Of a DNA stretch of 40,143 nucleotides, positions 6,792 through 21,586 are shown one piece after another; within the stretch, counting starts at the first letter, position 1, and the number at the start of each line of letters is the position of its first letter. Source of the DNA: an uncultured Anaerolineales bacterium (GTDB lineage Bacteria > Chloroflexota > Anaerolineae > UBA2200); contig CAYZKS010000004.1 of the NCBI GenBank assembly GCA_964478725.1, forward strand, positions 9,031 through 49,173, given 5' to 3'. Below the pieces are notes generated by a model. The model was not told the DNA's origin, searched no databases, and saw only the letters and a list, made by a program, of their open reading frames with translations. The translations under genes were made by a program, and so were the position numbers.

Positions 6792-7322
6792 TCAGTAGGG
6801 CCAGCCTTCCGGCAGATCCACCCAGGGCCGCCAATCCGCATTCGGTCCATCGATGAAACTGACTTGGCGTTCCACCAGGGTGATGTTCCCGGCGCCGACG
6901 AGAGTAGTCAAGCCTGGCGCGGTCAGTTCGGCGCGAACTCCAAACAGCCAACCCCAGCTCGCCGTCGAGCCGCGCCTGCCTGCTTCCACGGACACACTCA
7001 CGTTGAGAGTATATCCCTGTGGCAGGAGGGCATTGCGGTTCAATTCCTCCGCGACAATCCCCTTGGCCCTGTCGTTGGCCCTGGCTTCCCACTGCCAGGC
7101 GTCGGCCGAAGGATAGCTTCTTCCCTCCCAGGAAAGCACACGCGCGGCTTTGTAGGCGCCCAGGTACAGGGACTGCTTGACGGCCATCACCTTCCAGATC
7201 TCCAGAATGCCAAACACCAGCACAAGGAAGATCGGCAGGATGAGCATGTAAGAAATCACACTCACGCCCCGGCAGTCGCGTCGCAGTCGCTCCAACACGT
7301 GCAGGCTCCTAGTTTGCGGCAT
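6792..7322 (-). CDS. TadE/TadG-like minor pilin
   Basis: Basic leader RRDCRG, hydrophobic LILPIFLVLVFG, AYKAAR motif. Confidence 0.8.
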   Translation of the reverse strand: MPQTRSLHVLERLRRDCRGVSVISYMLILPIFLVLVFGILEIWKVMAVKQSLYLGAYKAARVLSWEGRSYPSADAWQWEARANDRAKGIVAEELNRNALLPQGYTLNVSVSVEAGRRGSTASWGWLFGVRAELTAPGLTTLVGAGNITLVERQVSFIDGPNADWRPWVDLPEGWPY

Positions 7323-7950
7323 GTGGCGCGCCCGAAGGTGTGGAGGTTGGCGTTGGTGTCACAATGCGAGGTGGGTACCAGGGGCCGCAATCCACAAAGG
7401 TGGTATGTGCACTGGTCAAGGTCACATCACCGAATGGCACGCCCAGCACTGAGGAGCGCCACGGGATGGTGACCCACGTGCGCACGGTGAAGATCAGGTT
7501 GTTACTGAACGAGTCCATGGCAGTGGGCCGACTGACGTACTGCCCCAAGCTTTCGCACGAGAAAGTCACCGGCGAGGCAATTTCCTGGCCGGCGCCGTTG
7601 TAGTAGCGCACGATCACGCTAACGTTGCCTGCATCAGCAACATAGGGGTTCGAGAGCAGCGACTCCCAAATCAGGCGTTCTGCCTGCAGTCTGTCGTCGT
7701 CGGTGCGGTTATAGCGCGCATTGGCATACGTCTGGTGGTAGGCGGACAAATAGCGCGCAGCCTGGTAAGTGGCGGCTTCCAGGGTCTGGCGCACCGAAGC
7801 CAGCTTCATCAGCTCGAAGGAGCCGTAGAGCACCAACACCAGAATCGGCAGAATCAGAACGAACTGGATCAAGTCGTAGCTGCCTCGCCGGTCGCGGCGC
7901 AGCCTGTGCACAAACCTCTGCAGTTTCGAGCGCGCATCTACTGAGCACAT
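7309..7950 (-). CDS. TadE-like minor pilin
   Basis: RRDRRG leader, FVLILPILVLVLYG, ATYQAAR; short P/T tail. Confidence 0.8.
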   Translation of the reverse strand: MCSVDARSKLQRFVHRLRRDRRGSYDLIQFVLILPILVLVLYGSFELMKLASVRQTLEAATYQAARYLSAYHQTYANARYNRTDDDRLQAERLIWESLLSNPYVADAGNVSVIVRYYNGAGQEIASPVTFSCESLGQYVSRPTAMDSFSNNLIFTVRTWVTIPWRSSVLGVPFGDVTLTSAHTTFVDCGPWYPPRIVTPTPTSTPSGAPHAAN

Positions 7951-8408
7951 AGCATCCGCCCGCTGTGCTCTTGTCTGAGCACCAATACCTCGGAAATGGG
8001 ACTGCTTCCCAGGACCGGCAGTGGCACGCTATACTCATAGGTCACCAAGAGGCGGAACGTGCTCGGGTTGCGATCATCACACCAGTCGGGGCGAGTGACG
8101 TCAAGATAAAGAATGACCTCCGCATCGCTGTCCTCTGGTACAAACGTGTTGTTGTGCAGCTCCTTGTTCACCAGAGGCCTGATCACATCGCGCAACAGAT
8201 CCGCCTGATGCCTCTGCCACAATAGGCCGTTCAGAGTCAAAAAGCGCGCCGCCTGGTAGGTGGCAGACTTGAGCGATTGCTTAATGGAGAGTACCTTCCA
8301 GACCTGAAAGGACAGGCTCAAGATCAGGACGAAAATGGCGACGTAAGCCATGGCCTGAATTGTGATCGAGCCGCGCCTATCTTGTCTGAACTTTACCAAA
8401 GGAACCAC
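7938..8408 (-). CDS. TadE-like minor pilin
   Basis: RQDRRG leader, TM helix, ATYQAAR; GTG start at 8408 is inferred and overlaps the peptidase stop. Confidence 0.7.
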   Translation of the reverse strand: MVPLVKFRQDRRGSITIQAMAYVAIFVLILSLSFQVWKVLSIKQSLKSATYQAARFLTLNGLLWQRHQADLLRDVIRPLVNKELHNNTFVPEDSDAEVILYLDVTRPDWCDDRNPSTFRLLVTYEYSVPLPVLGSSPISEVLVLRQEHSGRMLCAQ

Positions 8409-8983
8409 AGGTACACTACCCCCGGTAAACAGAACAGCCACACATAGGGCCTCCCCTCTTCTGCCAGTTGGCGTTCCGAGGGGAACAGGTGGCCCGTCTT
8501 GAACCATCCAAACACGGCCGCCGGTATGTCACGCAGACACTTGCCGCGCTGTTTGAGCAAGACCACGGGCAGCCCCAGGGCAATCACGGCCAGGCTAAGA
8601 AAGGTCACAAAGTCAGGGCGGGCAAACAGAGCCAGCATCGCCATCAGCGTCTTGGCGTCGCCGCCGCCAATCACGTGCAGCCACCACAACGCCAGGCAAA
8701 TCACCCACGCCACGAGCATGAACTGCAGAGCGTTCCCGGCCTGTGCGGCGCTCGCCCGGTGAGCCCAGTCGCCAGAAGCAACTGCCAAGGCCGGTACCAA
8801 CACGCCGAGGAGCTGCCAAGCTCCCCACACCAGTCGCCATCCTCCAAACAGAACGATGGCGGGAAAGGTAAGACGGTTTGGGATGATGCTGCTGCGCCAA
8901 TCGCTGTAGGCGATAGCGAACAGCCATACTGTTACGACGAGCCTGAAAAGCCAAGGCAAGACAGAGACCAGTGCGTTCCCCAA
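8393..8983 (-). CDS. Prepilin peptidase A24 (CpaA/TadV-like)
   Basis: SDWR..IIPN (first Asp) and IGGGDAK (GxGD); multi-TM; no methylase domain apparent. Confidence 0.9.
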   Translation of the reverse strand: MGNALVSVLPWLFRLVVTVWLFAIAYSDWRSSIIPNRLTFPAIVLFGGWRLVWGAWQLLGVLVPALAVASGDWAHRASAAQAGNALQFMLVAWVICLALWWLHVIGGGDAKTLMAMLALFARPDFVTFLSLAVIALGLPVVLLKQRGKCLRDIPAAVFGWFKTGHLFPSERQLAEEGRPYVWLFCLPGVVYLWFLW

Positions 8984-9002: not shown

Positions 9003-9167
9003 CTAGGACTGCAGCCGACGCAGAATGGTCTGCATCAGAAGCAGCACTTTGGCGTATAGGTCTTGGAAGATGAGATAAGTCGGCAGGAGCAGGGCGAGCG
9101 TCACCAACAGGTACTCCATCGCTTCCGCTCCGCTCTCATCATGCAGAAACCTTCGCAACGTGTGCAT
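9003..9167 (-). CDS. flp: Second Flp family pilin (54 aa, absent from ORF track)
   Basis: Manual translation MHTLRRFLHDESG-AEAMEYLLVTLALLLPTYLIFQDLYAKVLLLMQTILRRLQS*; GAGGAG RBS. Confidence 0.88.
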   Translation of the reverse strand: MHTLRRFLHDESGAEAMEYLLVTLALLLPTYLIFQDLYAKVLLLMQTILRRLQS

Positions 9168-9265: not shown

Positions 9266-9293
9266 TGGGGGATGCGGGCACCCGCATCCCCCA
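9266..9293. other. Perfect GC-rich hairpin between the two flp genes
   Basis: TGGGGGATGCGGG-CA-CCCGCATCCCCCA. Confidence 0.75.
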
Positions 9294-9370
9294 GCCTCAC
9301 GGGACATGTCCGCTCGAGCTCTGCCGTGCGGTAGGAGGGGGCCCATCCGCAGCGGCACCATGGGTCAGAA

Positions 9371-9547
9371 TTACGGGTTGTACCCGATGACTCGGTTGAT
9401 GACTTCGACGACCCGGTCCCCAGCTCGCCTGATGGCTGCACCGATGTTGGGGAACACCGCCCAGACCACCAGTGCCATGATCAGAATGATGAGGATCGTC
9501 TCTACCAAGTCTTGTCCGCTTTCGTCGTTCCAGAACCTTCTGAGCAT
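9371..9547 (-). CDS. flp: Flp family pilin (likely the major pilin)
   Basis: MLRRFWNDESG-QDLVE followed by a hydrophobic helix; GAGGAG RBS; alternative in-frame ATG at 9601. Confidence 0.9.
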   Translation of the reverse strand: MLRRFWNDESGQDLVETILIILIMALVVWAVFPNIGAAIRRAGDRVVEVINRVIGYNP

Positions 9548-9681
9548 GCTAGTACTCCTCTCCCTTCTCTGCAATGTCCCAACCCTGTGGATAACCTGCA
9601 TCGTACCTCCCCGGTACTGGGAAGCTGCGTTTGATGTTGAAACGCTGCAGGACTCGCCGCAGAACCCGGTCCGCACTTTGC

Positions 9682-10305
9682 TTACACCGACGTAATCAGG
9701 CTCATCAGCAACGGAAATATGGCCAAGATCAAGGCAGCCAAGAAGACTCCGCCGATCATAGGGAACGTCAGCCGAATCGGTGCCTGCTGAATCTGATTGC
9801 GGATGCTGCCGCGAATCTCATCTTCCACCTGGGCCACGGTAATGGACAAGGCCTGATCGTACGTGATTCCGCCGTTTCGCGCCGACTCCAGACGCTCGGG
9901 CAGCAGTTGCAGGTGGTCCGACTTGAAGTCGTCAGCCAGACCCTTGAGCACTTCCTCGGGTGCAATGGACAGACGCGACTCCACGTGTTTGTCCAGGCGC
10001 TGCCCAAAGATACCCCGCTTCTTGAACTGGTCGGCGGCCGCGATCAGTGAACCGCTCAAGGTCTGATTCATCGAGGTGCCAAGTTGTAGGCTGACCGCAA
10101 AGTCGCGAATCTCAGTCAGGTCTGCTTTGTACTCCTGCTTGCGCCCCAGCCTGGTCAACAAGCGCGTCCGGCGCTCCTCAGCGTGGCGACTGAAGCGCTT
10201 GCGTTGAAACGACCAAATGCGCCGCAATTCATAATCAATCCCAGTGCTGGCCACCACGCCCACAATGGCTATCACCAACAAGATCGTTGCCATCTGTTGG
10301 GTCAC
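9682..10305 (-). CDS. TadC-like platform protein
   Basis: N- and C-terminal TM helices, RLTFPM..FL motif, position after tadB. Confidence 0.7.
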   Translation of the reverse strand: MTQQMATILLVIAIVGVVASTGIDYELRRIWSFQRKRFSRHAEERRTRLLTRLGRKQEYKADLTEIRDFAVSLQLGTSMNQTLSGSLIAAADQFKKRGIFGQRLDKHVESRLSIAPEEVLKGLADDFKSDHLQLLPERLESARNGGITYDQALSITVAQVEDEIRGSIRNQIQQAPIRLTFPMIGGVFLAALILAIFPLLMSLITSV

Positions 10306-11132
10306 GAGATTCGCTCCCCCAGCTTCTGTGTCTCACGGTCGATGTAGTACGAGCTGCCTAACATCACGGTCAACACAGTCACATACACGAACTGGCCGAA
10401 CGAAGTGGTATAAGCTTGCCGTAGCATGGGAACCAGAGCTACCGCCAACAGGATCGCACCCGCTACCACCTGCATGATCTTGGTTTGTGTGCCGATCGAT
10501 GCCAAGTTGGACTGGACTTCCCGACGCAGCTCCGCATGTGAGCGCAGTCGCATTTCCAGGCCCTGCAGGGCCTTGACCACCGCATCGGGGGCCGCATTCT
10601 CCGCCATTTCCAGGATGTACGCAAATTGACTCAGGTAGACGTTATCGGTGCGTTTGCGCAATTCCTCAAAGGCGCGCTGCGGGGACGAGGTCAGGAAGAA
10701 GGTCTGAGCTGTGGTCTTCATCAGGCTCCGCAACGGACCGGTAGTCCTATCCGTCACCTTCTCCATCATGGAGAACACCGAAGGTTGCAGAGTGTATTCA
10801 GCACGAAAGGCCATTACGAATTGCAGAATCTGGTCCGTGTTTAGCCGCCGGCGCTCACTCTCCATGCGCTGCAGGTCGCGCCACAAAACCAACCCCGCTG
10901 CAATCACCAGATACAGCGAGATCAAAGGCACTCGCATCAGAAGTGCCAGCAGCACCAGCACGCCCGGGACCACAAGCTGCTTCCACGACAGGCCCTCCGG
11001 CAGGTAGCGCGCCCGGTAACGCCGCAGCACTGGCGCCAACGCAAGAGTGCTCGTGTCTCCTACCAAGAAGAGGAGCACGATCAGCAAGGCTGCTCCGAGC
11101 AGCAGGATCCGGATGGGATCTAGGCCTGCCAT
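10302..11132 (-). CDS. TadB-like platform protein
   Basis: T2SSF-like topology with two C-terminal TMs; follows the CpaF ATPase. Confidence 0.75.
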   Translation of the reverse strand: MAGLDPIRILLLGAALLIVLLFLVGDTSTLALAPVLRRYRARYLPEGLSWKQLVVPGVLVLLALLMRVPLISLYLVIAAGLVLWRDLQRMESERRRLNTDQILQFVMAFRAEYTLQPSVFSMMEKVTDRTTGPLRSLMKTTAQTFFLTSSPQRAFEELRKRTDNVYLSQFAYILEMAENAAPDAVVKALQGLEMRLRSHAELRREVQSNLASIGTQTKIMQVVAGAILLAVALVPMLRQAYTTSFGQFVYVTVLTVMLGSSYYIDRETQKLGERIS

Positions 11133-12346
11133 CTTTCGATCCCTTCCATCAGGGGAGTCCAGCCATCGCCCTTGCGTTGCTTAAGGGTATGCAGGACGTA
11201 TTGCCCGTTGTCGTAGCCATCTACAGCCAGAATCTCCTGCAGGAAGCGCACATAGTGCCCTCTCTTGGCATCATAGTCCTTGTTGAGGTGCACTACCAGG
11301 CCCAGACCGTGGCCGATGACCGGTCGCATTTCCTCGATGGCGATGTCCTTACGCGCGAGGTTCTCCAGACGGAACAGGGCCATACGGGCGCTCTGCGAGT
11401 GCGTCGTGGTGTGGCTCACGATGCCCAGGTTCAACGCAAGGATGTACTCCACGGCTTCTCCGGACACCACCTCGCCGATCATCACCACGTCGGGGCGCAT
11501 GCGCAGGATGGCCGTGTTGATGGCATCGCTCATCTGCCCGGTTTCTTCCTCCACCACCAGGTGGTGGAAATGCTCAACCTGCGGCTGCAATTCCTCAAAG
11601 GTCTCCACTACAGATACCTGCGCACGCTCTGGAAGATGCTGCGAGAAGGCGTTTAGCCAAGTGGTCTTGCCAGCACCCGGGCGCCCAGAGAAGACCACGC
11701 TGACCTTCATGGAATTGGCCACCTTGGCCAGGAAGTCGATGGTCTCTTCGTCAGCACTGCCCTTCTGCACCAGATCCTCAAGCCGCAGTTTCTTGCGAGC
11801 GAAACGCCGGATATTGATCGCCGTGCCTTCGCGACTGAGCGGCGGGATGGTGGCGGCGAAGCGTGAGCCATCCGGCAATCCCACCTTGATCATGGGGTCT
11901 GCTGCGCCCAGGCCTCTACCCGACATGTCCGCGATGCGCCGGGCCAAACGATAGAAATAGGCATCTTCGCCCAACTGCCCAATGGGCTTGAGCTCCCCCA
12001 TGCGCTCCACCGTTACATACCCGTTGCGCACGATGATCTCTTCGAGGTCTTCTTCCTCCAGGAAGGGGTGCAGCACGCCGAGCCCGATGATGCGCTTCAC
12101 CAGCTCCCTGGCGATCTCTTGCAGGTCCGCCTCTGCCACCGGCAGCTGCAACTCTCTGACAGCGCGCAATACATTGGCGCGGAAGGCAAAGTCCTGTTCG
12201 TCTTCGTGTCCGTCCGAACTACGCCAAGTAGGGACAGGGACCTCCCTATCCACACACCAGTCCTGGACCAGGGTCGCATAGTGATTGAGGTTGTGCACCC
12301 GCTCCAGTTCTTGGATTCTGGTCTGGGAACTCCTGGACTCGGACAT
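11120..12346 (-). CDS. cpaF: CpaF/TadA pilus assembly ATPase
   Basis: LPDGSRF, INIRRF, Walker A GRPGAGKTT, LRMRPD..IGEV, HTTTH. Confidence 0.92.
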   Translation of the reverse strand: MSESRSSQTRIQELERVHNLNHYATLVQDWCVDREVPVPTWRSSDGHEDEQDFAFRANVLRAVRELQLPVAEADLQEIARELVKRIIGLGVLHPFLEEEDLEEIIVRNGYVTVERMGELKPIGQLGEDAYFYRLARRIADMSGRGLGAADPMIKVGLPDGSRFAATIPPLSREGTAINIRRFARKKLRLEDLVQKGSADEETIDFLAKVANSMKVSVVFSGRPGAGKTTWLNAFSQHLPERAQVSVVETFEELQPQVEHFHHLVVEEETGQMSDAINTAILRMRPDVVMIGEVVSGEAVEYILALNLGIVSHTTTHSQSARMALFRLENLARKDIAIEEMRPVIGHGLGLVVHLNKDYDAKRGHYVRFLQEILAVDGYDNGQYVLHTLKQRKGDGWTPLMEGIERWQA

Positions 12347-12358
12347 CTCTCACTCCAC

Positions 12359-13564
12359 CTAGTTGCCCGTATTGGGCAGGCTGGCATTGCCCGTGGGCGG
12401 GCAGGTAGCATCGGAGGTGGTCTCCCACGTGCACTGAAACGCCGCAGCGCCTGCCGTCACAGTCGTCGTGAACTTGGTATTCGCTGGAAAGCCGCCCGGA
12501 CGCTCAATCAGGTGCGAGGCCGTGCCTGGCGCAGGGTGAAAAAACTGCTGGCTGAAGTGCTGCACCCGATCCTGATCCGTGACCTCGATGGTAATGGGGA
12601 ACGCTCCTGCGGGCGCATAGTTGAGCGTCACAACAGCCCAGAGCGTACTCGTGCCGTTAGAGAACTTTTCGCATTGAGTGCCATTCCTAGCAGCGCTCAT
12701 GTACACGCTTCCACTGACAACAGAGACTGTTCCGCCAGGCACAGTCGTGGCGTTCGGGCCTCCCGGCGTGGATGGCTCGCTCGTCGGCTGCAGCGTAGGC
12801 TGTGGTGTCGGCGTGGGCCTCCGCAGAGTGGGAACGGGCATAGGCGTGGTAATCGCCGCGGGCTGCGGTGCCAGCGTCACCCAGGCTGAGTAGTCACGAC
12901 TACCCAGGAATGCGATGATAGCCTGCGCTACCCTGGGCTCGGCTGCATACACGACCACACTCGCCGGCTGAGCACCGGCCAAGCCGCCCCCCAGGCTGCC
13001 AAAGTCGAGCGGGCCGCCGCCGCTGGGCGTGGGCGTCCCCGACACGCTTGCCTGCCCTGCCGTCGCTTGTTCGCCGGTTTCCGTGCGCACGCCGACCACC
13101 AGGATGTTGCTCGCCACCAGGACAAGATCGCCGTTGTCTTCGTCTTCATCGCTCTTGCGATAGGCATACACGTTGATCCTGTGCCCCGGCCGCACCTGCC
13201 CGCCCACCAGCTCGCTGAACACGGCCTTGAAGCTGCCGATCTCCAGGCCCATGTCCCCCCAGAAACGGAAATCCTCTGGCAACAACGCGTTGGCACGGGT
13301 CAGTCCGGTGCCTTTCTTGATCAGGGTTGTTGCCATGTACCCATCCAGTTTGTCTGCGGAGGTGTAGTAGCCGCCCGCCATGGCGCTGGGCACGGTAGTG
13401 GTGCTCACCTGACTGGAGCTGATGAACGTGTAGGGCTCTATGTTCTCTCTGGCGGCCAAGACCACGACTGCGCTCGGCGCCGCCGGTCCCTTCTGGGTCG
13501 GCAAGAGTTTGAAGGCGACCAGAATGACGACCAACAGGAGCAACAAGACCTTGCGGTTTCTCAT
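12359..13564 (-). CDS. CpaB/RcpC-like protein (SAF domain) with P/T linker, extra C-terminal domain and terminal LPNTG
   Basis: N-terminal TM, VVVLAARENI, VGGQVRPGHRINV, NILVVGV. Confidence 0.75.
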   Translation of the reverse strand: MRNRKVLLLLLVVILVAFKLLPTQKGPAAPSAVVVLAARENIEPYTFISSSQVSTTTVPSAMAGGYYTSADKLDGYMATTLIKKGTGLTRANALLPEDFRFWGDMGLEIGSFKAVFSELVGGQVRPGHRINVYAYRKSDEDEDNGDLVLVASNILVVGVRTETGEQATAGQASVSGTPTPSGGGPLDFGSLGGGLAGAQPASVVVYAAEPRVAQAIIAFLGSRDYSAWVTLAPQPAAITTPMPVPTLRRPTPTPQPTLQPTSEPSTPGGPNATTVPGGTVSVVSGSVYMSAARNGTQCEKFSNGTSTLWAVVTLNYAPAGAFPITIEVTDQDRVQHFSQQFFHPAPGTASHLIERPGGFPANTKFTTTVTAGAAAFQCTWETTSDATCPPTGNASLPNTGN

Positions 13565-13583: not shown

Positions 13584-14561
13584 TCAACGCCCGATGAGTC
13601 GCTTCAGTGCACCCGAAATGCCTTCTGGCTTCTCATACCTCTTCCAGGCGCGTCCGTAGACGTACTGCAGAACCGCGGCGCCCAGCTTGCCCTCCCACTG
13701 GGTTACCCGGTCCTGGTAGGGCAGATCGAGCCCGCGCTCAGTTCCGGCCAGGGCCAGCGTGTCTGCTGTACCACGTTTCTCGTTCAACACGATGCTGGCT
13801 TTGGCTCCCAGTTCCGCTACGAGCTTGGTGGCATTGCCTACAGCATCGAGTCGAGGCGTAGTCACCACCAGCCACTCGTCTACTTCGGGCTCAATCGACT
13901 TGACGAGACCATGTGGTTGGATGGCATCTACCACAGTGAGGGTATGCCTTGCCACCTGCTTCTTGAGGTACTTGGCCAGTTGCTCCACCGGCAACACCCT
14001 GCAGCTCTCATAGTCCATTGGCACCATGGTCACACCCTTGAAAGAGGAAGGGCGCAACTCGGTATTGGACGTGAGGTCGAACATGTGGGGCATCTCCATA
14101 CCGGTGAGCGCTGCCAAGGCAGATACCCCGTGGACGAACTCAACCATCATGACCGGCCGCTCAGTCTGGCGCGCAAAGTGCAGCGCAGTATCCAGGGCCA
14201 GAGTGGTCTTCCCCACTCCACCAGAGTATGAGGTGAAGGCTATCGTCAGCTTGTCCGGCAGCTCTGTGCCACCTTTGGTACGGGTAGCATCCTGGGTCAG
14301 CTTGTCAGGCGCCATCAAAAAGGCTTCGCTGCTTGCCCAAGGCAATCTGCGTTTCTCTTGGGCCTCGGCCAACTGGCTCTGAATGACGCCAATCTCGTAC
14401 GGGTATTCGACGATGTCCTGGAAATCGATGATCACCAGATCGGCCGTGGGAATGCCCTTGGCAATTTGATCGGTGAAGAGCGCAGGTTCAAGCTCGACAT
14501 CCTTCATCGCACGCAATGCTTCCAGAACGGCCACCGACTTGGTAGCGACGAGGACTTTCAT
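13584..14561 (-). CDS. CpaE/TadZ-like MinD/ParA family protein
   Basis: Degenerate receiver-like N-terminus, SYSGGVGKTT; ATG at 14561 with GAGAGGGGG upstream. Confidence 0.8.
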   Translation of the reverse strand: MKVLVATKSVAVLEALRAMKDVELEPALFTDQIAKGIPTADLVIIDFQDIVEYPYEIGVIQSQLAEAQEKRRLPWASSEAFLMAPDKLTQDATRTKGGTELPDKLTIAFTSYSGGVGKTTLALDTALHFARQTERPVMMVEFVHGVSALAALTGMEMPHMFDLTSNTELRPSSFKGVTMVPMDYESCRVLPVEQLAKYLKKQVARHTLTVVDAIQPHGLVKSIEPEVDEWLVVTTPRLDAVGNATKLVAELGAKASIVLNEKRGTADTLALAGTERGLDLPYQDRVTQWEGKLGAAVLQYVYGRAWKRYEKPEGISGALKRLIGR

Positions 14562-14610
14562 GAAGCGTGCACCCCCTCTCTTCTGGCCCAGCGGCCGATA
14601 GTACGGGCCC

Positions 14611-14639
14611 ATTATAACATGGGCACATACCCTTGTCAA
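14611..14639 (-). promoter_or_regulatory. Consensus sigma70 promoter of the Tad operon
   Basis: TTGACA-17nt-TATAAT with extended TG. Confidence 0.85.
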
Positions 14640-14681
14640 TAGCTAGTAAATCACATTTCCCTGGCAGTTATGTGAAAAAGC

Positions 14682-14723
14682 CTGACCACCATACTGACTT
14701 TTTGCTGACTTTTTCATGACATT
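14682..14723. repeat. Phased direct repeats, putative wHTH operator
   Basis: TGAC cores at 14683, 14695, 14706, 14717; CTGACTTTTT exact twice. Confidence 0.65.
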
Positions 14724-14728
14724 GCCCC

Positions 14729-14757
14729 TGGACAGAAGCCGGATTCCGTGCTATAAT
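14729..14757 (+). promoter_or_regulatory. sigma70 promoter of the NACHT gene
   Basis: TGGACA-17nt-TATAAT with extended TG. Confidence 0.75.
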
Positions 14758-14790
14758 GCCTCCACCTCCTAAGCCCAAGGAGAATTGCCC

Positions 14791-17700
14791 ATGGCCGACA
14801 GCTCATTCCTACACAGACTCGGGGCGAGACTGGCACCGGAAGCGTACTTGAACCGGTATCTTGACAACGTGGCCAAGGCTTGTGATGTAGTGCTTCTTCC
14901 TGGCGACGACCAGCCGCGCTCCCTGGAATCGTTCTATCTCCCGCTGCACTTGCGCGACATGACTCCTCAGACCAGGGGAACGCCAGGGGGTCAGAACAAA
15001 ACCCAGGACATCTGGGACGCACTGTTCCGCTCGCCTCGCCTGGCGATCGTAGGCGAAAGCGGCGCAGGCAAGACAAGCACGCTAAAGCACGCTACCGCTA
15101 CTCTGGCACGCAAGAAGATGCCAGAGGCGTACGTCCGGCGGCTGACCTTTCTGCACCTCGGGCAGGCTTTTGCTTCGTTGTTGCCTATCTACGCTGACTT
15201 GAGCCAAGCGGACCCTGGCGCGGAGGATCTGTTGACCATTCTGGCCGAGGAGCTGCATGCCCATGGGTTTCCCGCGGCCTCGGGTTTCCTTAGGGATAGG
15301 TTCAGTCAGGGCGGCTGCATTCTGTTCCTGGATGGCATAAACAGGCTGACCTCAGACGCGACTCTTGGCAGGATCAAGGACCTACTGGCTACATACCCCA
15401 GGCTGCTGGTAGTGATCGCCACACGCACCTTCCGCACTCTGAGCACCTTGCCTGCCTTCGCCGGCTTTGAGTGCCTGCCCTTCACAGCTTCGAACGCAGT
15501 GGACTGGATCGGACGTAGGTTTGACAAGGACTCGCATGCCGCGGCTTCGCTGTCCCAGGCAATAGAGCGCAACGCCGGACTGCGTACGCTGGCCGAAAAC
15601 CCTTGGCTTCTTTCCATTCTGGCATCCGTCAAGGCGCCGGCGCCATCCTCCATTCTGACTCTACAAGCCCTTTACGAGCAGTGCCTGCGTGTTCTGATTG
15701 CAGAAGGCACTGACGCGGCCTCGAACTCGGGGCAGTCATCTGCCGGCAACCAGCCTCGGCAGCGAGCAGTGCAACAACTGGGGCTCTACGCTCATGAGCG
15801 GCACCTGGAGCAGTTCTCAGAACAGGAGATCCGCGCCGCCATCAGGCTGCTGCCGCGAACACCTGATGCGCTAGACGAAGCGACTCTGCTGGCCTGGATC
15901 ACGCATAGTCCGCTTCTGCGGCAGAATGGCGGCGAATCCTTCTCCTTCCTGCGGCAAGCGCTTCAGGAATACCTGGCGGCGCAGACACTGGTGGCAAGAG
16001 GCCCCATCGCAGAGGTTGTGCGCAACCATGCTGGGGATCCGTGGTGGCACGAGGTACTGGTGAATGTGGCGGCGCTGCAGGGCAATGCTGCGGAGGTAAT
16101 CGAAAACCTGCAGCCTGCGCCTGACCAGTCCCCGGCCTCCTTACTACTGGCAGCCCGTTGTGCAATCGAAGCCCCCAACACACCGCCCGAGGTAAGGCAA
16201 CGCCTGCGCGTTCAGCTCTTCCCAATTCTGCAAACAGAGGACTCCTTGCACTGGCGCCAGGCTGCGCTATGCATCGCTGCCTTTCAGGGCCAGCGCATCA
16301 GCGAGTTCTTTCCCAGAGCGTTGAGAGAAGGGAGCATCCAGGAACGACAGAATGCCGCCTTGGCCATGGGTCGCGTTGGCTCGCCAGACTGGGCCACCAT
16401 TCCTCTGCTAGGAGCCCTGGACGTCAAGTTCCCCGAGCCCGTGCGTAGACAGGCCGCCTGGGCTCTGGGGCAACTGAAAGACAAAAGGGCCGTACAACCA
16501 CTCATGGCCGTGCTGAGAGACAACCCGGACTTGGCCGCTGAGGCCGCCACAGCCCTCAGTGTCATCGCTGAACCGGCCGTCCCGCCACTGACAGCGGCGC
16601 TGAGCAGCAGCGATACACAGGTACGCCAGATGGCGGTAAAGTCATTGGGCAAGATGGGTGCTACGGCTCTGAGACCGTTGCTGGAGATCGTCCAGGACGA
16701 GAAGCGGGCCGATCAGGTGATCAAGGGAGCGGCAGAAGCTCTCGGACTGCTGGGCGATGCGCAAGCCGTACCGGCTCTGGCAGCGCTGCTGCGGTCCCGT
16801 CGCGGCAAGTTCGCCGAGCCGGCCGCAAACGCGCTTGCCGGCATTGGCGTTCCTGCGGTTCAGTCCTTGATCGAGGCTTTGCCGGCTCAGAGTGCCGAAG
16901 TAGAACTGCGGCAGAGCATCATCTCTGCACTCGTGGCCATCAGTCTGCCGTCCGTTCCAGCGCTGACCCAGGCCTTGGACAGCCCAAGCACAGCCGTACG
17001 TACGGCTGCTGAAGATGCCCTGAAGGGCATCGGCGCTCCAGCCAATCAGGCCCTGCTGCAGACCCTCCGCGGAGGTGATCTGAATCTACGCCGCAGGATT
17101 GCTGAGATCCTGGAAAACACTGGCGATGCGGCTCTGACAGAGCCACTCATAGGCATGTTGGCCGACAGGGCTCAGGACTCTGGTGTGCGAGTGCGGGCGA
17201 TGCACATCCTCGCCAAGATCGCGCCAGAGCAGGCGGTGAGTCCTCTGATCGAGGCCATGCAAAGGGATCGGGAGGAGGTTGTGCGCCGAGAGGCCGTGCG
17301 CACGCTCATGGACATCAAGAGCGAGCGTGCCGTGGGCCCACTGATCGACACGCTACAGGATGGCGCGCTGTGCGACCAAGCTACGGCTGCTCTATCGACC
17401 ATCGGCGAGCCGGCAGTCGAACCCCTGATCCTGGCCGTCAACGAAGGTCGCAACAGTGGCCTGCGGCAAGCGGCTATCAAGGCTCTGAGCAACATCGGCG
17501 CAGGCGGAAGGATAGGAGAGCCGACGCTGGCGGCTTTGGCGCGCGTCTACAGCCGCTTACTTGGCGAACAGCACACGCCGGATGCGCTTCTTGCTCTGAT
17601 CGAGAACATACGCTGGTGGAAGCACGGAGAAGAACTGTACCAGGCTTTCAACAGCGCCAAGGTGCTGGCACAGGCACAGGATCTCGACCAAGTGGCGCGT

Positions 17701-19503
17701 TCCCGGGAGGCCCTGGCGTGGTGGATGGAGGGTGCCGGCAAGCCATTCAGACCAGGAATCAGGAAGATCCTTCAAGATCTGAACAGCATAGCGCAAGATG
17801 CGGCGATCTATCTGAGCAATCCGGACCGCGATGGGCAACGCAACGCCATGGTGAGCACCATCGACAGGCTCACCGGCATACAAGAGACCATCGACACTCA
17901 GCTTCTAGAATTCGAGAAGGGCCCGTTTACTCAAGTGGTCGAAGGCTGGCGCCGGCTAACCGAAGAGGCCATCAAGAACCTGCGTGGGCGCGCTCAATTG
18001 GCGGTCGATATCATTCGCGACGACATTGTGCTGGACAGCGGGTCCGTAACCGGCACGGTCGTGTTCAGCCTCACCAACACCGGCGCAAGCGCTGCGAGGA
18101 ACCTCACGGCCACCCTGAGACGTGGTAGCAAGGACGGATTCGAGGTGGTGGGCTCTGCCACTCAGCGCCTGGAGCCGCTGGGAACCGGCATGCAGAAGGA
18201 AGTAGAGTTCACCATCAGGCCCCTGGGTGTGACGCAGGCCACGTACGCGCTTGAGGTTTCCTACGATGATGATGAGGCTGAGAACCGCTTCTACCCCATC
18301 AGCGGCCAATTGCGGTTCCATTCCATCGACCGCGAATACCGCCCCATTCCATTCAGCCCATACAACTGGGGCCCTCCGGTCAAGACCCCGCACATGTTCT
18401 ACGGACGACAGGACGTATTTGCCTGGATCAACGAGAACATCGGCGGTCCTGAGCAGCCCAACATCTTGGTGCTGCATGGCGAACGCAGAATGGGCAAGAC
18501 CTCGATTCTGTACCAACTGCAGGCCAACCCGCCGACTCCGCAACACGTGCCGGTTCTCTTTAGCCTAGAACTTGCCGTGCCCAAGTCGATTGGGGACTTC
18601 CTCCTCGATCTGACCAACGCGATCCGCGAGAAGCTCATTAGGAGCGGGACTGAGGTGTCGAGGGCGGTCGAGTCGGACTTTATGAGCAACGCCCAGCGTG
18701 CCTTTCGCCACTACTACTACGAGGTAGTGGAACCCAGCCTGGGCGAGCGCAGGTTGCTGGTAATGGTGGACGAAATCGACATCCTACTCGACAAGGTGGA
18801 GTCGGGCGCCCTCAGCGAAGACACGCTCAAATTCCTGCGGGGATTGATGCAGCACAGTAGCAAGATCGCCTTTGTCTTCACAGGCGCCTACAAGTTGCGC
18901 GAGACGCTCAAGGACAACCACTCGATCCTATTCAACATCGCTCGAGCCTACGAGATCAGTTACCTTGGGCAGGTCGAGGCCGAGGCACTCATCACAGAGC
19001 CCGTCGCGCAATACCTCAACTACGACGATCTGACTGTACGCACCATAGTGGATGTCACTGCAGGTCATCCTTACTTCATACAGTACATTTGCGACTCGCT
19101 AGTCAAGCTCGCACGCAGGCTGAAGAAGAACTGGGTATTCAAACACGACGTGCAAGTTGTATTGCAGGATGTAGTCCAGGACAGCTCTGGCGTGTTGCAG
19201 AGCGCGATGTTCGCTCCTCTTAGCCGGTCGGAGCAAATCGTTCTGGCGGGCCTGGCAAATGTCACAGATGAGAACCGCGTCTATGTGTTGCCCGAGACTG
19301 TGGCTCAAAGACTTGAGCAGAGTAAGCTGAGTATACCCGGGAAGGACTTGCTGGAAGCACTGCGTTCGCTGCGTGAACGCGACTTGGTAGTAGAGCAAAA
19401 GTCCGGCCAAAGCCTCATGTACAGATTCAAGATGGGCCTGATCCGCATGTGGTTGTGCCAGAACGAGGTGCTCCTGCGCCTCAGTCAGGAGATGAAGGTT
19501 TGA
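14791..19503 (+). CDS. NACHT NTPase + HEAT repeats + Ig/CARDB-like domain + second STAND-like ATPase
   Basis: GESGAGKT, FLDG, NPWLL, LQEYLAA; repeated VRxxAAxALG / AVxPLI; LTNTGASAARN; FYGR, GERRMGKT, VDEID, GHPYFIQ; AAGGAG RBS before ATG 14791. Confidence 0.85.
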   Translation: MADSSFLHRLGARLAPEAYLNRYLDNVAKACDVVLLPGDDQPRSLESFYLPLHLRDMTPQTRGTPGGQNKTQDIWDALFRSPRLAIVGESGAGKTSTLKHATATLARKKMPEAYVRRLTFLHLGQAFASLLPIYADLSQADPGAEDLLTILAEELHAHGFPAASGFLRDRFSQGGCILFLDGINRLTSDATLGRIKDLLATYPRLLVVIATRTFRTLSTLPAFAGFECLPFTASNAVDWIGRRFDKDSHAAASLSQAIERNAGLRTLAENPWLLSILASVKAPAPSSILTLQALYEQCLRVLIAEGTDAASNSGQSSAGNQPRQRAVQQLGLYAHERHLEQFSEQEIRAAIRLLPRTPDALDEATLLAWITHSPLLRQNGGESFSFLRQALQEYLAAQTLVARGPIAEVVRNHAGDPWWHEVLVNVAALQGNAAEVIENLQPAPDQSPASLLLAARCAIEAPNTPPEVRQRLRVQLFPILQTEDSLHWRQAALCIAAFQGQRISEFFPRALREGSIQERQNAALAMGRVGSPDWATIPLLGALDVKFPEPVRRQAAWALGQLKDKRAVQPLMAVLRDNPDLAAEAATALSVIAEPAVPPLTAALSSSDTQVRQMAVKSLGKMGATALRPLLEIVQDEKRADQVIKGAAEALGLLGDAQAVPALAALLRSRRGKFAEPAANALAGIGVPAVQSLIEALPAQSAEVELRQSIISALVAISLPSVPALTQALDSPSTAVRTAAEDALKGIGAPANQALLQTLRGGDLNLRRRIAEILENTGDAALTEPLIGMLADRAQDSGVRVRAMHILAKIAPEQAVSPLIEAMQRDREEVVRREAVRTLMDIKSERAVGPLIDTLQDGALCDQATAALSTIGEPAVEPLILAVNEGRNSGLRQAAIKALSNIGAGGRIGEPTLAALARVYSRLLGEQHTPDALLALIENIRWWKHGEELYQAFNSAKVLAQAQDLDQVARSREALAWWMEGAGKPFRPGIRKILQDLNSIAQDAAIYLSNPDRDGQRNAMVSTIDRLTGIQETIDTQLLEFEKGPFTQVVEGWRRLTEEAIKNLRGRAQLAVDIIRDDIVLDSGSVTGTVVFSLTNTGASAARNLTATLRRGSKDGFEVVGSATQRLEPLGTGMQKEVEFTIRPLGVTQATYALEVSYDDDEAENRFYPISGQLRFHSIDREYRPIPFSPYNWGPPVKTPHMFYGRQDVFAWINENIGGPEQPNILVLHGERRMGKTSILYQLQANPPTPQHVPVLFSLELAVPKSIGDFLLDLTNAIREKLIRSGTEVSRAVESDFMSNAQRAFRHYYYEVVEPSLGERRLLVMVDEIDILLDKVESGALSEDTLKFLRGLMQHSSKIAFVFTGAYKLRETLKDNHSILFNIARAYEISYLGQVEAEALITEPVAQYLNYDDLTVRTIVDVTAGHPYFIQYICDSLVKLARRLKKNWVFKHDVQVVLQDVVQDSSGVLQSAMFAPLSRSEQIVLAGLANVTDENRVYVLPETVAQRLEQSKLSIPGKDLLEALRSLRERDLVVEQKSGQSLMYRFKMGLIRMWLCQNEVLLRLSQEMKV

Positions 19504-19622
19504 GTGCGGACAGCGCAAGCTCACCCGCGCATGCATTGAGGGTGGCGGGAGTTACCTACGACCCGGCTCCTTGCGCTTCGTGTTAAGCCGGGAGTCCTAC
19601 CTTAAGACCAGGAGATGACAAC

Positions 19623-20975
19623 GTGTCTACCAAGAGCGCTGTTGAGAATCCGTACTATTACGGTGGGCATCTGAGTGACCCGGCAGACTTCTACGGCCGC
19701 GAGGAGCAATTGCAGGACGTTCTGGAGCGCCTACACAAACGCGGTTCGACGTCGCTCGTGGGTGAACGGAAAAGCGGCAAGACGTCTTTGCTGTACTACA
19801 TGGTGACGGACACAGCGCATAGGCTGTACGGCGTGGGCAGCGAAGACCTGGTATTCGTGTATATGCACCCAGGACTGCAGATTGGTGGCCCTGCCGGTTT
19901 CTTTCGAGGTCTCCTGCAGAAGCTGGCGGAGCAAGTTCCCTCTGCGATCGTGGACATGCCAGAAGAAGCAGACGAGAAGGAAGTGGAGGCTGCGCTGAAG
20001 AGGCTTGCGCCGCGCCGCTTGGTCCTGCTGCTTGACGAGTTTCAGGACATTACCAGTCGCGGCGGCTTCTCTTCCGATTTCTTCCGGATCTTGCGTGGTC
20101 TTGCCGATACCTACGATGTGTGTTTCATCACCGCCACCGCAGAAGAGCTCCGTGATTGCTGTCCCGATGAGCTGGTCTCATCTCCCTTCATCAACATCTT
20201 TGCCACGGTCCGCCTAGGCTCGTGGACCGAAGGCGAATTCGATCAGTTCATGAGCGAGACCAGCAGGCGTTCTCGATCTCCCATGTTCGCCTGCAAAGAC
20301 GAGATTCAGAGGCTGGGCGGTCGTTTCCCTTTCTTCGTGCAGATGGCCTGCCACTTTTACTTTGATGCCTGGCGACGGCACAAAGAGCTGACCACACAGG
20401 GCCGAATCGCCGCGCAGCATTGCTTCACTGACGAAGCCATGCCCTACCTGGAAAGAGCTTGGGGAAGGCACCTGACGGCAGCGGAGAAGGCAACCCTCAT
20501 CTCCCTGGCGCATGACAGGGAGTGCACCGGTCAGCCTGCTCTGCGCACGCTGGAGCAGAAGGGATATGTCCTGGACGGGCACGTCTTCTCTTCGGCGCTG
20601 AACGACCTCATCCTGCGCAAGGAAAGTTCGGGCGAGAAGCTACTGCCAGAACTCTCGACCAGCCCGCAGGGGCCGGTTCCCAAGGGAATCTGGATGGACA
20701 GGACATCGGGCGATGTTTGGGTGGACGGGAAACGCATTCACGACCTGACCAGGCTGGAGTACAAGCTGCTGCGCTACTTGTACGAGAACGCCAACTGCCT
20801 GTGCGACAAATACGGTCTGGTCGAGGCAGTTTGGTCTTCAGACTATATCGACAAGGTGGATGACCCTCGCATCGCGAAACTGGTCAGCCGTCTGCGCGAG
20901 GACGTGGAACCCGATCCCAAGAACAGTCGCTATATCCTCACAGTGCATGGCCGAGGCTACAGGTTGGTGAGTTAG
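19623..20975 (+). CDS. STAND/AAA-like ATPase fused to OmpR/PhoB-type winged-helix DNA-binding domain
   Basis: NPY..G, FYGR, GERKSGKT, LLDEF, PFFVQ; C-terminal LTRLEYKLL..VSRLR..EPDP..ILTVHGRGYRL. Confidence 0.85.
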   Translation: MSTKSAVENPYYYGGHLSDPADFYGREEQLQDVLERLHKRGSTSLVGERKSGKTSLLYYMVTDTAHRLYGVGSEDLVFVYMHPGLQIGGPAGFFRGLLQKLAEQVPSAIVDMPEEADEKEVEAALKRLAPRRLVLLLDEFQDITSRGGFSSDFFRILRGLADTYDVCFITATAEELRDCCPDELVSSPFINIFATVRLGSWTEGEFDQFMSETSRRSRSPMFACKDEIQRLGGRFPFFVQMACHFYFDAWRRHKELTTQGRIAAQHCFTDEAMPYLERAWGRHLTAAEKATLISLAHDRECTGQPALRTLEQKGYVLDGHVFSSALNDLILRKESSGEKLLPELSTSPQGPVPKGIWMDRTSGDVWVDGKRIHDLTRLEYKLLRYLYENANCLCDKYGLVEAVWSSDYIDKVDDPRIAKLVSRLREDVEPDPKNSRYILTVHGRGYRLVS

Positions 20976-21586
20976 GCTCTCAGTTCCCTCAGCTGTCGCG
21001 CCAGCTGTGCAGCGGAGCGGAAAGTGATCGTCTGCATGCCCAACAGCCGGGCCGCTTCGATGTTGCGCTCTTTGTCGTCGACAAACAGGCACTGCGCCAT
21101 TTCAAGCCCAAGCCGTGCGGCGGTGATTCTGTAGATCTGCGGATCGGGCTTGCGCAAGCCCGCTCGCGCCGAATTCACAACGACATCAAACAGGCCGCTC
21201 AGGCCCTGCTTTGCAAGCAGAGACTCCAAGCCAAGGGTCGCGTTGCTCAACAAGGCCGTCCTGTAGCGCCTGTGCAACTGCCGGCCCACGATCACCATGC
21301 GCCGGTTTAGCCTTTCATAGGCAAAGGGATTAGACTTGAAGAGTTCAAGCTCAGGCGGAACTTGGCCACCCAGCGCGACACGGATCTGACACCAGTACTC
21401 TTCGGCACTGATACGGCCAGTAGAGTACGCGTACCAGTGCTCGCTCCCGAATAGCAGCTCGCTCAATGCACCCTTCGGAAGCCGCAATTCGCACTCACAA
21501 CGCCGTAACAGCGCTTCACGCGGTCCGACTCGCGTGAAGACGCCGCCAAAGTCCAGGATCACGCCAGACAACATCGCATTCGCCAT
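20972..21586 (-). CDS. HAD family phosphatase (YihX-like)
   Basis: ILDFGGV, LLSN, KPDPQIY, FVDD..N; start uncertain (21586 or 21574). Confidence 0.85.
   Translation of the reverse strand: MANAMLSGVILDFGGVFTRVGPREALLRRCECELRLPKGALSELLFGSEHWYAYSTGRISAEEYWCQIRVALGGQVPPELELFKSNPFAYERLNRRMVIVGRQLHRRYRTALLSNATLGLESLLAKQGLSGLFDVVVNSARAGLRKPDPQIYRITAARLGLEMAQCLFVDDKERNIEAARLLGMQTITFRSAAQLARQLRELRA

Follow-up and report, generated by a model that had tools for sequence, protein, structure and literature searches.

Paired STAND NTPases encoded by adjacent genes have already been described: in the available text of Kaur et al. 2021 (PMC8195603), a two-gene operon of nSTAND2 proteins, found computationally, is predicted to be a counter-invader system, where one partner is inactive and fused to effectors and the two proteins are expected to form a heteromer. 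Regarding transcriptional regulators, the SARP protein AfsR, which joins an OmpR-type DNA-binding domain to BTAD, NOD and TPR regions, has a target of two 11-bp direct repeats overlapping the -35 element, according to the accessible part of its description (PMC10936776). The subject of this analysis is a pair of genes, P1 and P2, encoding a large putative sensor and a small DNA-binding partner, located beside a Tad/Flp pilus operon in 40,143 nt of contig CAYZKS010000004.1 (GCA_964478725.1) from an uncultured Anaerolineales bacterium; this whole stretch is referred to as the window, and the part studied is 14611-20975 (Table 1). With slightly better than even confidence, P1 and P2 are read as a kinase-free two-protein STAND signalling module, inherited with the Tad/Flp locus in Anaerolineae-type Chloroflexota and having pilus genes as its output.

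The pair falls within the nSTAND2 two-gene class. As in the operon outlined in the available text of Kaur et al. (PMC8195603), two adjacent genes each carry a STAND NTPase module, and the NTP-binding motif is often degraded in the partner bearing the output, as seen for P2 in 10 of 20 orthologs; P2 also matches the Pfam nSTAND2 model, and related pairs vary in output (TIR, kinase, LuxR or winged helix-turn-helix, wHTH). The proposal of the first-pass annotation that this is a candidate new system was therefore overstated, since such paired operons are already on record. Unlike the operon as presented in that available text, the output of P1-P2 is an OmpR-type wHTH (Trans_reg_C) and not GT4 or HEPN, both P-loops are intact in the window, the C-terminal module of P1 falls below the nSTAND2 model, P1 adds a complete NACHT-HEAT sensor, a cis-element is identified, and the pair is vertically linked to tad instead of being mobile. 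New in P1-P2 are thus the wHTH output, the fusion of a NACHT-HEAT sensor to an adaptor ATPase, the stable inheritance with tad and a cis-element with fixed promoter geometry. A literature search brought up no publication about such a system or about the regulation of Tad in Chloroflexota; the titles retrieved for nSTAND2 were, apart from unrelated ones, Kaur et al. 2021 and a paper on fungal NLRs with its preprint. The source data of Kaur et al. may include nSTAND2 pairs with a wHTH.

Compared to AfsR, as far as its accessible description goes (PMC10936776), the likeness lies in an OmpR-family winged helix coupled to a STAND ATPase, in 11-bp direct repeats at the -35 as the target (predicted for P2) and in an ATP state gating activation (predicted for P1-P2). 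The differences are that P2 has its ATPase at the N-terminal and its wHTH at the C-terminal, with no BTAD, NB-ARC or TPR found; that this ATPase is of the nSTAND2/MNS type and not NB-ARC, with the sensor on a separate protein; and that the P1-P2 array counts 2-5 repeats upstream of the -35, not overlapping it. By analogy, P1-P2 would work like a split AfsR/SARP, yet it lacks the features of SARP membership. P2 shares with the OmpR/PhoB response regulators the DNA-binding fold and, by prediction, direct-repeat sites with one-turn spacing beside the -35; however, an ATPase module takes the place of the receiver domain, so P2 is not a response regulator, and the unit contains no histidine kinase. 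Meanwhile, P1 resembles the NACHT/NLR-like bacterial STAND sensors in that a NACHT-type NTPase at its N-terminus precedes an arm of helical repeats, but it lacks an N-terminal effector, carries a second ATPase at the C-terminal and would delegate the output to a partner transcription factor.

The domain anatomy of the pair, as well as its gene pairing, its tad linkage and the conservation and geometry of its cis-element, can be read directly from the data. The first-pass annotation had described the first gene as NACHT-HEAT-Ig-ATPase and the second as ATPase-OmpR/PhoB wHTH, and both architectures were recovered. In P1, AAA_16 matches aa 84-203 (37.6 bits, cut-off 32.6), and NACHT reaches 20.9 bits in the window protein, under its cut-off of 26.7, with six of six orthologs matching at E <=0.01 (best 2.2e-15). 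The HEAT arm (HEAT_2, E 4e-44) extends over approximately 500 residues of the PBS-lyase type and is alphaRep-like in the Protein Data Bank (PDB). The C-terminal module matches AAA_22 (E 2.8e-16) and, weakly, ATPase_2 and nSTAND6. An AlphaFold model of the last 572 aa, with 21 orthologs in the alignment, has a pLDDT of 86.8 and a pTM of 0.77 and presents, in order, a three-helix segment, a nine-strand β-sandwich, a P-loop α/β domain, a helical domain and a winged helix. The Walker A (GERRxGKTS) and Walker B (DE) motifs of this module are invariant in 21 of 21 orthologs. As seen by Foldseek, the nearest structures to the ATPase modules of both P1 and P2 are PABY2304 (2qen) and SSO1545 (2fna), two STAND-like ATPases of archaea, and Orc1/Cdc6, with plant NLRs lower in the list; the sequence search of the PDB retrieved HEAT/alphaRep proteins with P1 and wHTH domains with P2, but nothing related to either ATPase module.

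P2 matches nSTAND2 (PF20702) with an E of 2.7e-21 (76.5 bits, the cut-off being 24), and its residues 374-448 match Trans_reg_C with 59.8 bits against 26.2. The structure model of P2 has a pLDDT of 87.9. Its profile retrieved 76 PDB sequences at E <=0.01, and among the matches listed, all cover profile positions ~330-440; they include RegX3 (E 4e-19), PhoB (E ~3e-16), WalR and other OmpR-family domains, and the model superposes on the VicR DNA-binding domain with a TM score of 0.83 (Foldseek). The wHTH is firmly of the OmpR/PhoB type. Response_reg is not matched by P2, and the NCBIfam response-regulator models cover only ~aa 354-449, far below their cut-offs. In the window, P2 keeps GKTS and DE; in the ten orthologs mentioned above, all outside the window's clade, N, T or A stands in place of the Walker A lysine (GNTS, GTTS, GATS), with the rest of the fold kept. 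Domain searches with Pfam, NCBIfam and PADLOC found no receiver domain, kinase, BTAD, NB-ARC, TPR or toxic effector in the P1-P2 unit, in agreement with the earlier remark that no toxic effector domain is visible.

For the study of gene order, a pattern scan with one genome per GTDB species and a six-ortholog alignment gave 72 loci, in each of which open reading frames (ORFs) were called and searched with the window's own proteins. The named relatives are all Chloroflexota metagenome-assembled genomes, most of them Anaerolineae. A HEAT-type P1 is present in 27 loci, and a P2-type gene lies directly downstream in all 27 (26 by script, L078 by eye), its start overlapping or abutting the P1 stop in most orthologs. 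In the window itself, the two genes are separated by 119 bp (19504-19622), unlike most orthologs. Linkage to tad was counted in the 22 of these 27 loci where the sequence ahead of P1 is 700 nt or longer: in 21, the CpaE-like gene heading the tad operon is divergent and adjacent to P1, and the sole exception, L074, has unrelated genes there. This synteny was among the checks named in advance and came out in favour of the linkage. P1 identity to the window protein spans 54% to 27%, and the downstream neighbours of the pair vary between clades, so the linkage is not merely local shared ancestry. By comparison, the 38 loci with a non-HEAT A-type protein (the same ATPase in another architecture) have CpaE/CpaF in their flanks in 0 of 38 cases; 27 of them have a B-type partner within 2.6 kb, and 7 of the 11 partnerless ones reach a contig edge. 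Among 61 genomes (the window's and 60 relatives), full-length P1 occurs in 6, all among the 9 with the same CpaE type, and no genome has P1 without this CpaE type. Two others of those 9 are G035, with a short A-type protein and P2 on another contig (C41), and G029, where the CpaE match is weak.

In a deeper clade, the first pair is followed in tandem by a second, made up of an A-type protein (~700 aa) and a B-type one (~460 aa) with a wHTH closely similar to that of the window's P2; two of these loci, L078 and L096, have a triple GCTGACGCGAA array on the minus strand in the space separating the pairs.

The candidate cis-element is an array of phased (C/T)TGAC cores. OmpR/PhoB-type wHTH proteins bind direct repeats about one helical turn apart. 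In the window, the array includes two perfect 11-bp units, CTGACTTTTTG and CTGACTTTTTC, at 14694-14715, followed by ATGAC at 14716, and 8 nt separate its last TGAC core from the -35 of the P1 promoter. Every one of the 22 orthologous loci with upstream sequence carries TGAC-N7-TGAC ahead of P1, as does the window, with 2 to 5 phased cores each, and in that position the array is always on the strand of the gene, never reversed. Repeat conservation in Chloroflexota, the other check named in advance, was thereby borne out. The rest of the same 22 loci (436,851 bp) holds 13 such matches versus 12.5 expected by chance. A promoter with at least 9 of 12 consensus positions is found downstream of the array in 15 of 23 cases (window included), and in all 15 the last core is 7-10 or 18-19 nt from the -35, the longer gap corresponding to one repeat unit more. 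The spacers shift by clade, from T/A-rich to GC-rich, and the (C/T)TGAC core persists, which makes the array look like a protein-binding site. The array also accompanies P1-P2 in L074, without adjacent tad, and on contig C41 of G035, beside the short and different A-type protein; for this reason, the wHTH of the pair is the most economical candidate binder.

Across the 4.2-Mb assembly, the triple phased TGAC occurs once, in the window, with ~0.35-0.46 expected. A genome-wide scan at 11 or 12 of 12 positions gave 12 sites, roughly at chance by estimate, only that of the window being 12/12, and the assembly contains 89 double sites compared to 100-121 expected. Because these counts are near chance, no regulon is called. 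One 11/12 triple (C18:22013, minus strand) lies ~56 nt downstream of the stop of a solo paralog of 462 aa on contig C18 (L018 8570-9958; C18:20569-21957), the wHTH recognition helix of which is nearly identical to that of P2. L080 (19115) and L081 (19111) have in common a double GCTGACTACTCCCTGAC repeat on the plus strand, 3 kb beyond P2 and between a ~990-aa gene and an extracytoplasmic function (ECF)-sigma-like gene; this conserved repeat may be a further target site.

The earlier proposal that the wHTH controls both itself and the pilus holds best for its first half. Since the distance to the tad promoter varies and the gap to the -35 stays fixed, the array belongs to the promoter of the pair, and autoregulation of P1-P2 through it is a secure, though sequence-based, prediction. 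Activation is more likely than repression, because the array is directly upstream of a usually imperfect -35, near a strong extended -10, as in PhoB- and SARP-dependent promoters. As for the pilus, the conserved linkage and phyletic co-occurrence are joined by a second kind of array: CTGAC-N6-CTGAC upstream of the flp promoter, in flp orientation, in 5 of the 17 loci with an flp region. Of these, L080 and L081 belong to one lineage and L083, L084 and L086 are Ardenticatenales, with the cores kept and the flanks diverged. In the window's genome, control of pilus genes is a prediction drawn from the linkage and from the 55 nt between array and tad promoter. A shared 8-mer, GACATTGC, was also read from the sequence near flp1, where it may be due to chance.

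That the two ATPases share motifs, as first noticed by eye, is visible in the BLASTP alignment of the C-terminal ATPase of P1 with that of P2 (E 3e-9, 21% identity over 365 columns): PY..G, FYGR, GERRMGKTS/GERKSGKTS, VDE/LDE and PYFIQ/PFFVQ are common to both, and both modules have Walker A and B followed by a helical and winged-helix tail. A dead subunit kept beside a live paralog typically marks a hetero-oligomeric ATPase. As the genes overlap and co-occur strictly, a complex of P1 and P2 is argued for. The co-fold of P1 1188-1570 with P2 1-345 scored 0.40, with 0.00 for the best of 3 controls, the runs agreeing in at least 86% of contacts and the partner pLDDT being at least 81. Of 80 solved complexes, 58 pass the mark applied, compared to 2 of 110 mismatched pairs; at scores <=0.60, only 7 of the 80 complexes pass, and both passing mismatches are in this range. 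A pass of this kind is a weak one, rated more often wrong than right without a good prior. The suggested hetero-oligomerization thus gains evolutionary support from the gene overlap and the eroded P2 P-loop and little from co-folding; taken together, these lines make a P1-P2 heteromer rather likely.

From these elements, a mode of action can be proposed in which we infer the signal, the heteromer, the sense of the regulation and the identity of the repeat-binding protein. P1 would be the sensor, through its NACHT-type NTPase, its HEAT-repeat arm and a second ATPase module with intact catalytic motifs, and P2 the output, joining an OmpR/PhoB winged helix to an nSTAND2 ATPase whose P-loop half of the orthologs can do without. 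Signal-dependent assembly of P1 would recruit or rearrange P2 via the paired ATPase modules, then several P2 winged helices would align head-to-tail on the (C/T)TGAC-N6 direct repeats abutting the P1-P2 -35, most likely resulting in positive autoregulation. The output would be the expression of the neighbouring pilus genes, in some lineages directly, through the second array at the flp pilin promoter, and in the window's genome at most through the shared 230-bp control region.

Several observations weigh against this reading. The phased repeats noted between the promoters by the first-pass annotation are present, but taken by themselves the two TGAC-N7-TGAC matches in the 40 kb of the window are no more than chance would give, 50 of 100 shuffles containing at least as many, so their significance rests on the cross-genome conservation. 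The C-terminal module of P1 does not match Pfam nSTAND2 at E <=0.01, the C18 paralog could share or compete for the DNA motif of P2, and genome G015, 96% complete, has the tad type and not the pair. In the eight recognisable cases, the distance from array to tad promoter is 10, 55 (window), 102, 107, 133, 170, 297 and 560 nt, and in L068 an insertion interrupts the interval, so position-dependent control of the tad promoter by the P1 array is disfavoured. The window's tad promoter is moreover a perfect consensus, which should fire without an activator, and the search for flp-proximal arrays was negative for the window (flp1, flp2), its nearest clade and others, making up 12 of the 17 loci with an flp region.

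The insertion in L068 (~9300-9870, the same DNA as L048 7050-7600) is a repeat-rich element of ~450 bp, resembling a miniature inverted-repeat transposable element. It contains long inverted repeats and GGCCACCTTTGTCCCTGGG in tandem, and it separates the tad promoter from the TGAC array. Regarding G015, its locus L140 (G015:C2:85000-104999) contains the same tad operon type, with a CpaE 42% identical, upstream genes on the same strand, no P1/P2 and a second CpaF/TadB set 6 kb upstream.

An unlikely alternative places the action of the pair on the proteins of the Tad machine, for instance as a checkpoint or scaffold that would read pilus assembly via CpaE, CpaF or the pilin; the wHTH would then set only the level of the pair, and in the window's genome the pilus genes would not be among its transcriptional targets. 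In favour of this, the P1 promoter is the only one to which the array is phase-locked, no second triple array occurs in the assembly, the tad promoter has the full consensus, and the window's clade has no flp array. However, a self-only transcription factor would have no output, the motif is also upstream of flp in five distant orthologous loci, and domain and PDB sequence searches found nothing in P1 similar to known Tad-binding modules.

An anti-phage role, in which P1 senses an invader and the response is transcriptional, such as shutting down the Tad phage receptor, instead of a toxic effector, is likewise improbable. The counter-invader prediction for nSTAND2 operons with an inactive, effector-bearing partner, as far as the available text of Kaur et al. 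2021 states it (PMC8195603), is consistent with it, as are the erosion of the P2 P-loop and the C-termini of related B-type partners, namely LuxR/GerE (L108), TIR (L131) and a Ser/Thr kinase (L097); other B-type partners have no recognisable domain there. Faint partial NCBIfam matches to the anti-phage NACHT proteins HyoA (E 0.002) and DS8 (E 4.5e-4) point the same way, far below cut-off. Against this stand the absence of an effector domain in P1 or P2 and the search of PADLOC-DB 2.0, which gave only HEAT-ARM_XIII (a repeat match) and two weak hits to P-loops, mad8 over ~40 residues and PDC-S27 (E 0.0019). In addition, the pair is not mobile, keeping the same tad-side position across families over the whole range of P1 identity; its other neighbours are housekeeping and not defence genes (HAD hydrolase, YjeF, MFS, MnmE), and its phyletic pattern follows tad. 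It is very improbable that the tad adjacency is a functionless inherited gene order and the repeats are bound by another regulator: close relatives do share the whole neighbourhood, making the synteny partly non-independent, and G015 has tad without the pair and L074 the pair without an adjacent CpaE, but the adjacency persists although downstream neighbours differ, tad genes are absent near the paralogous A-type loci, and the repeats travel with P1-P2 even without adjacent tad.

The pilus-linked signalling module thus remains the preferred reading, and its setting is as follows. The region 14611-20975 comprises two divergent transcription units, the tad operon on the minus strand and the P1-P2 pair on the plus strand. 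The first-pass annotation had placed back-to-back sigma70 promoters ahead of the two units, and the promoter scan of 14400-21200 found exactly two sigma70-like sites (12/12 and 11/12), where shuffles average 1.3; counterparts of the tad promoter were recognised in 7 orthologous loci. The identity of the minus-strand gene set as a Tad/Flp pilus operon, also proposed earlier, is confirmed by the T2SSE, Peptidase_A24 and TadE matches and the Flp motif; the order is CpaE/TadZ-like, CpaB-like, CpaF, TadB-like, TadC-like, two Flp, A24 peptidase and three TadE-like genes. The two small genes are presumably Flp-type pilins, their motif being recognised by eye. A GC-rich hairpin (9267-9292, minus; GGGGGATGCG ... 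CGCATCCCCC) lies between them and is kept in L068, L069 and L072, although the flanks have diverged; it may set the pilin ratio, either as an attenuator or by stabilising the mRNA. At the distal end of the cluster (4241-6676, minus), and in the same place in L068 and L069, is a protein of 811 aa rich in Reg_prop (two-component regulator propeller) repeats.

Table 1. Features of the P1-P2 locus, its control region and the divergent tad operon (window coordinates unless a locus or residue range is given).
Feature	Position	Strand	Details
Phased (C/T)TGAC array	14683..14727	plus	cores 14683, 14695, 14706, 14717; spacing 12, 11, 11; predicted P2 wHTH site
P1-P2 unit promoter	14729..14757	plus	TGGACA-17-TATAAT, 11/12, TG before -10
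P1, 1570 aa	14791..19503	plus	ORF 14785-19503; likely start ATG 14791 after AAGGAGA
P1 NACHT-like NTPase	~aa 68-480		profile matches
P1 HEAT repeats	~aa 480-1000		profile and PDB matches
P1 helical region and nine-strand β-sandwich	~aa 1000-1188		structure model
P1 C-terminal STAND/Orc-Cdc6-like ATPase with winged helix	~aa 1189-1570		profile, model, Foldseek
P2, 450 aa	19623..20975	plus	nSTAND2 ATPase and helical/winged-helix region aa 1-340; OmpR/PhoB-type wHTH ~aa 352-450
tad operon promoter	14611..14639	minus	TTGACA-17-TATAAT, 12/12, TG before -10
CpaE/TadZ-like, first tad operon gene	13584..14561	minus	weak ParA-type match only
CpaB/RcpC-like	12359-13564	minus	RcpC and SAF matches below cut-off
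CpaF ATPase	11120-12346	minus	T2SSE 94.5 bits
TadB-like	10302-11132	minus	named by position and matches among orthologous loci
TadC-like	9682-10305	minus	named by position and matches among orthologous loci
Two Flp-type pilin genes (presumed)	9371-9547 and 9003-9167	minus	Flp motif
A24 prepilin peptidase	8393-8983	minus	Peptidase_A24 44.7 bits
Three TadE-like genes	7938-8507, 7309-7950, 6792-7322	minus	TadE profile matched in two
Tandem second pairs	L078 15296-18701; L083 14794-18346; L096 16093-19383; also L082, L090, L091		

Besides the tad locus, the conserved A-module (helical region, β-sandwich, ATPase and winged helix) occurs with other sensors. A database search found cyclase- and TIR-bearing forms and more than 100 clusters with nSTAND2 and Trans_reg_C, named only 'hypothetical', 'AAA family ATPase' or 'DNA-binding wHTH protein'. 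A paralogous pair is present on contig C58 of the same genome (L017, 5699-11824) in reversed gene order, with a 445-aa nSTAND2 and Trans_reg_C protein first, followed by a large protein of ~1400 aa possessing a signal/transmembrane segment, FG-GAP-like β-propeller repeats, a transmembrane helix and the helical/β-sandwich/ATPase module; its gene is interrupted by 100 N at 7676-7775. By eye, no clear 11-bp phased repeat was seen upstream of this pair.

A broader and more tentative view, possible though held with clearly less confidence than the module itself, is that the A/B pair is a general kinase-free chassis of filamentous Chloroflexota, accepting any sensor on A and a swappable C-terminus on B, and domesticated as a Tad master switch that would polymerise wHTHs on 2-5 phased CTGAC repeats. 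The sensor of A would be NACHT-HEAT at the tad locus and a membrane β-propeller on C58; the helical/β-sandwich/ATPase adaptor would hand the signal to a B-type nSTAND2 protein, often catalytically dead, with a wHTH, LuxR, TIR, kinase or cyclase at its C-terminus. If true, this would add to the one- and two-component systems a third way of relaying a signal to a promoter, and it would connect NLR-type immunity with everyday gene regulation.

The locus offers a concrete, testable cis-element with a predicted cognate factor, as well as a natural case of a STAND/NLR-like sensor that would be wired to transcription via a second protein. It also provides an evolutionary series, where the output subunit loses its P-loop and the adaptor ATPase of the sensor stays intact, which could reveal how paired STAND ATPases transmit signals. 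The Tad pilus is important as a phage receptor, in adhesion and in the filamentous way of life found in activated sludge, and the pair could show 'immune' modules being reused for the housekeeping regulation of a surface organelle.

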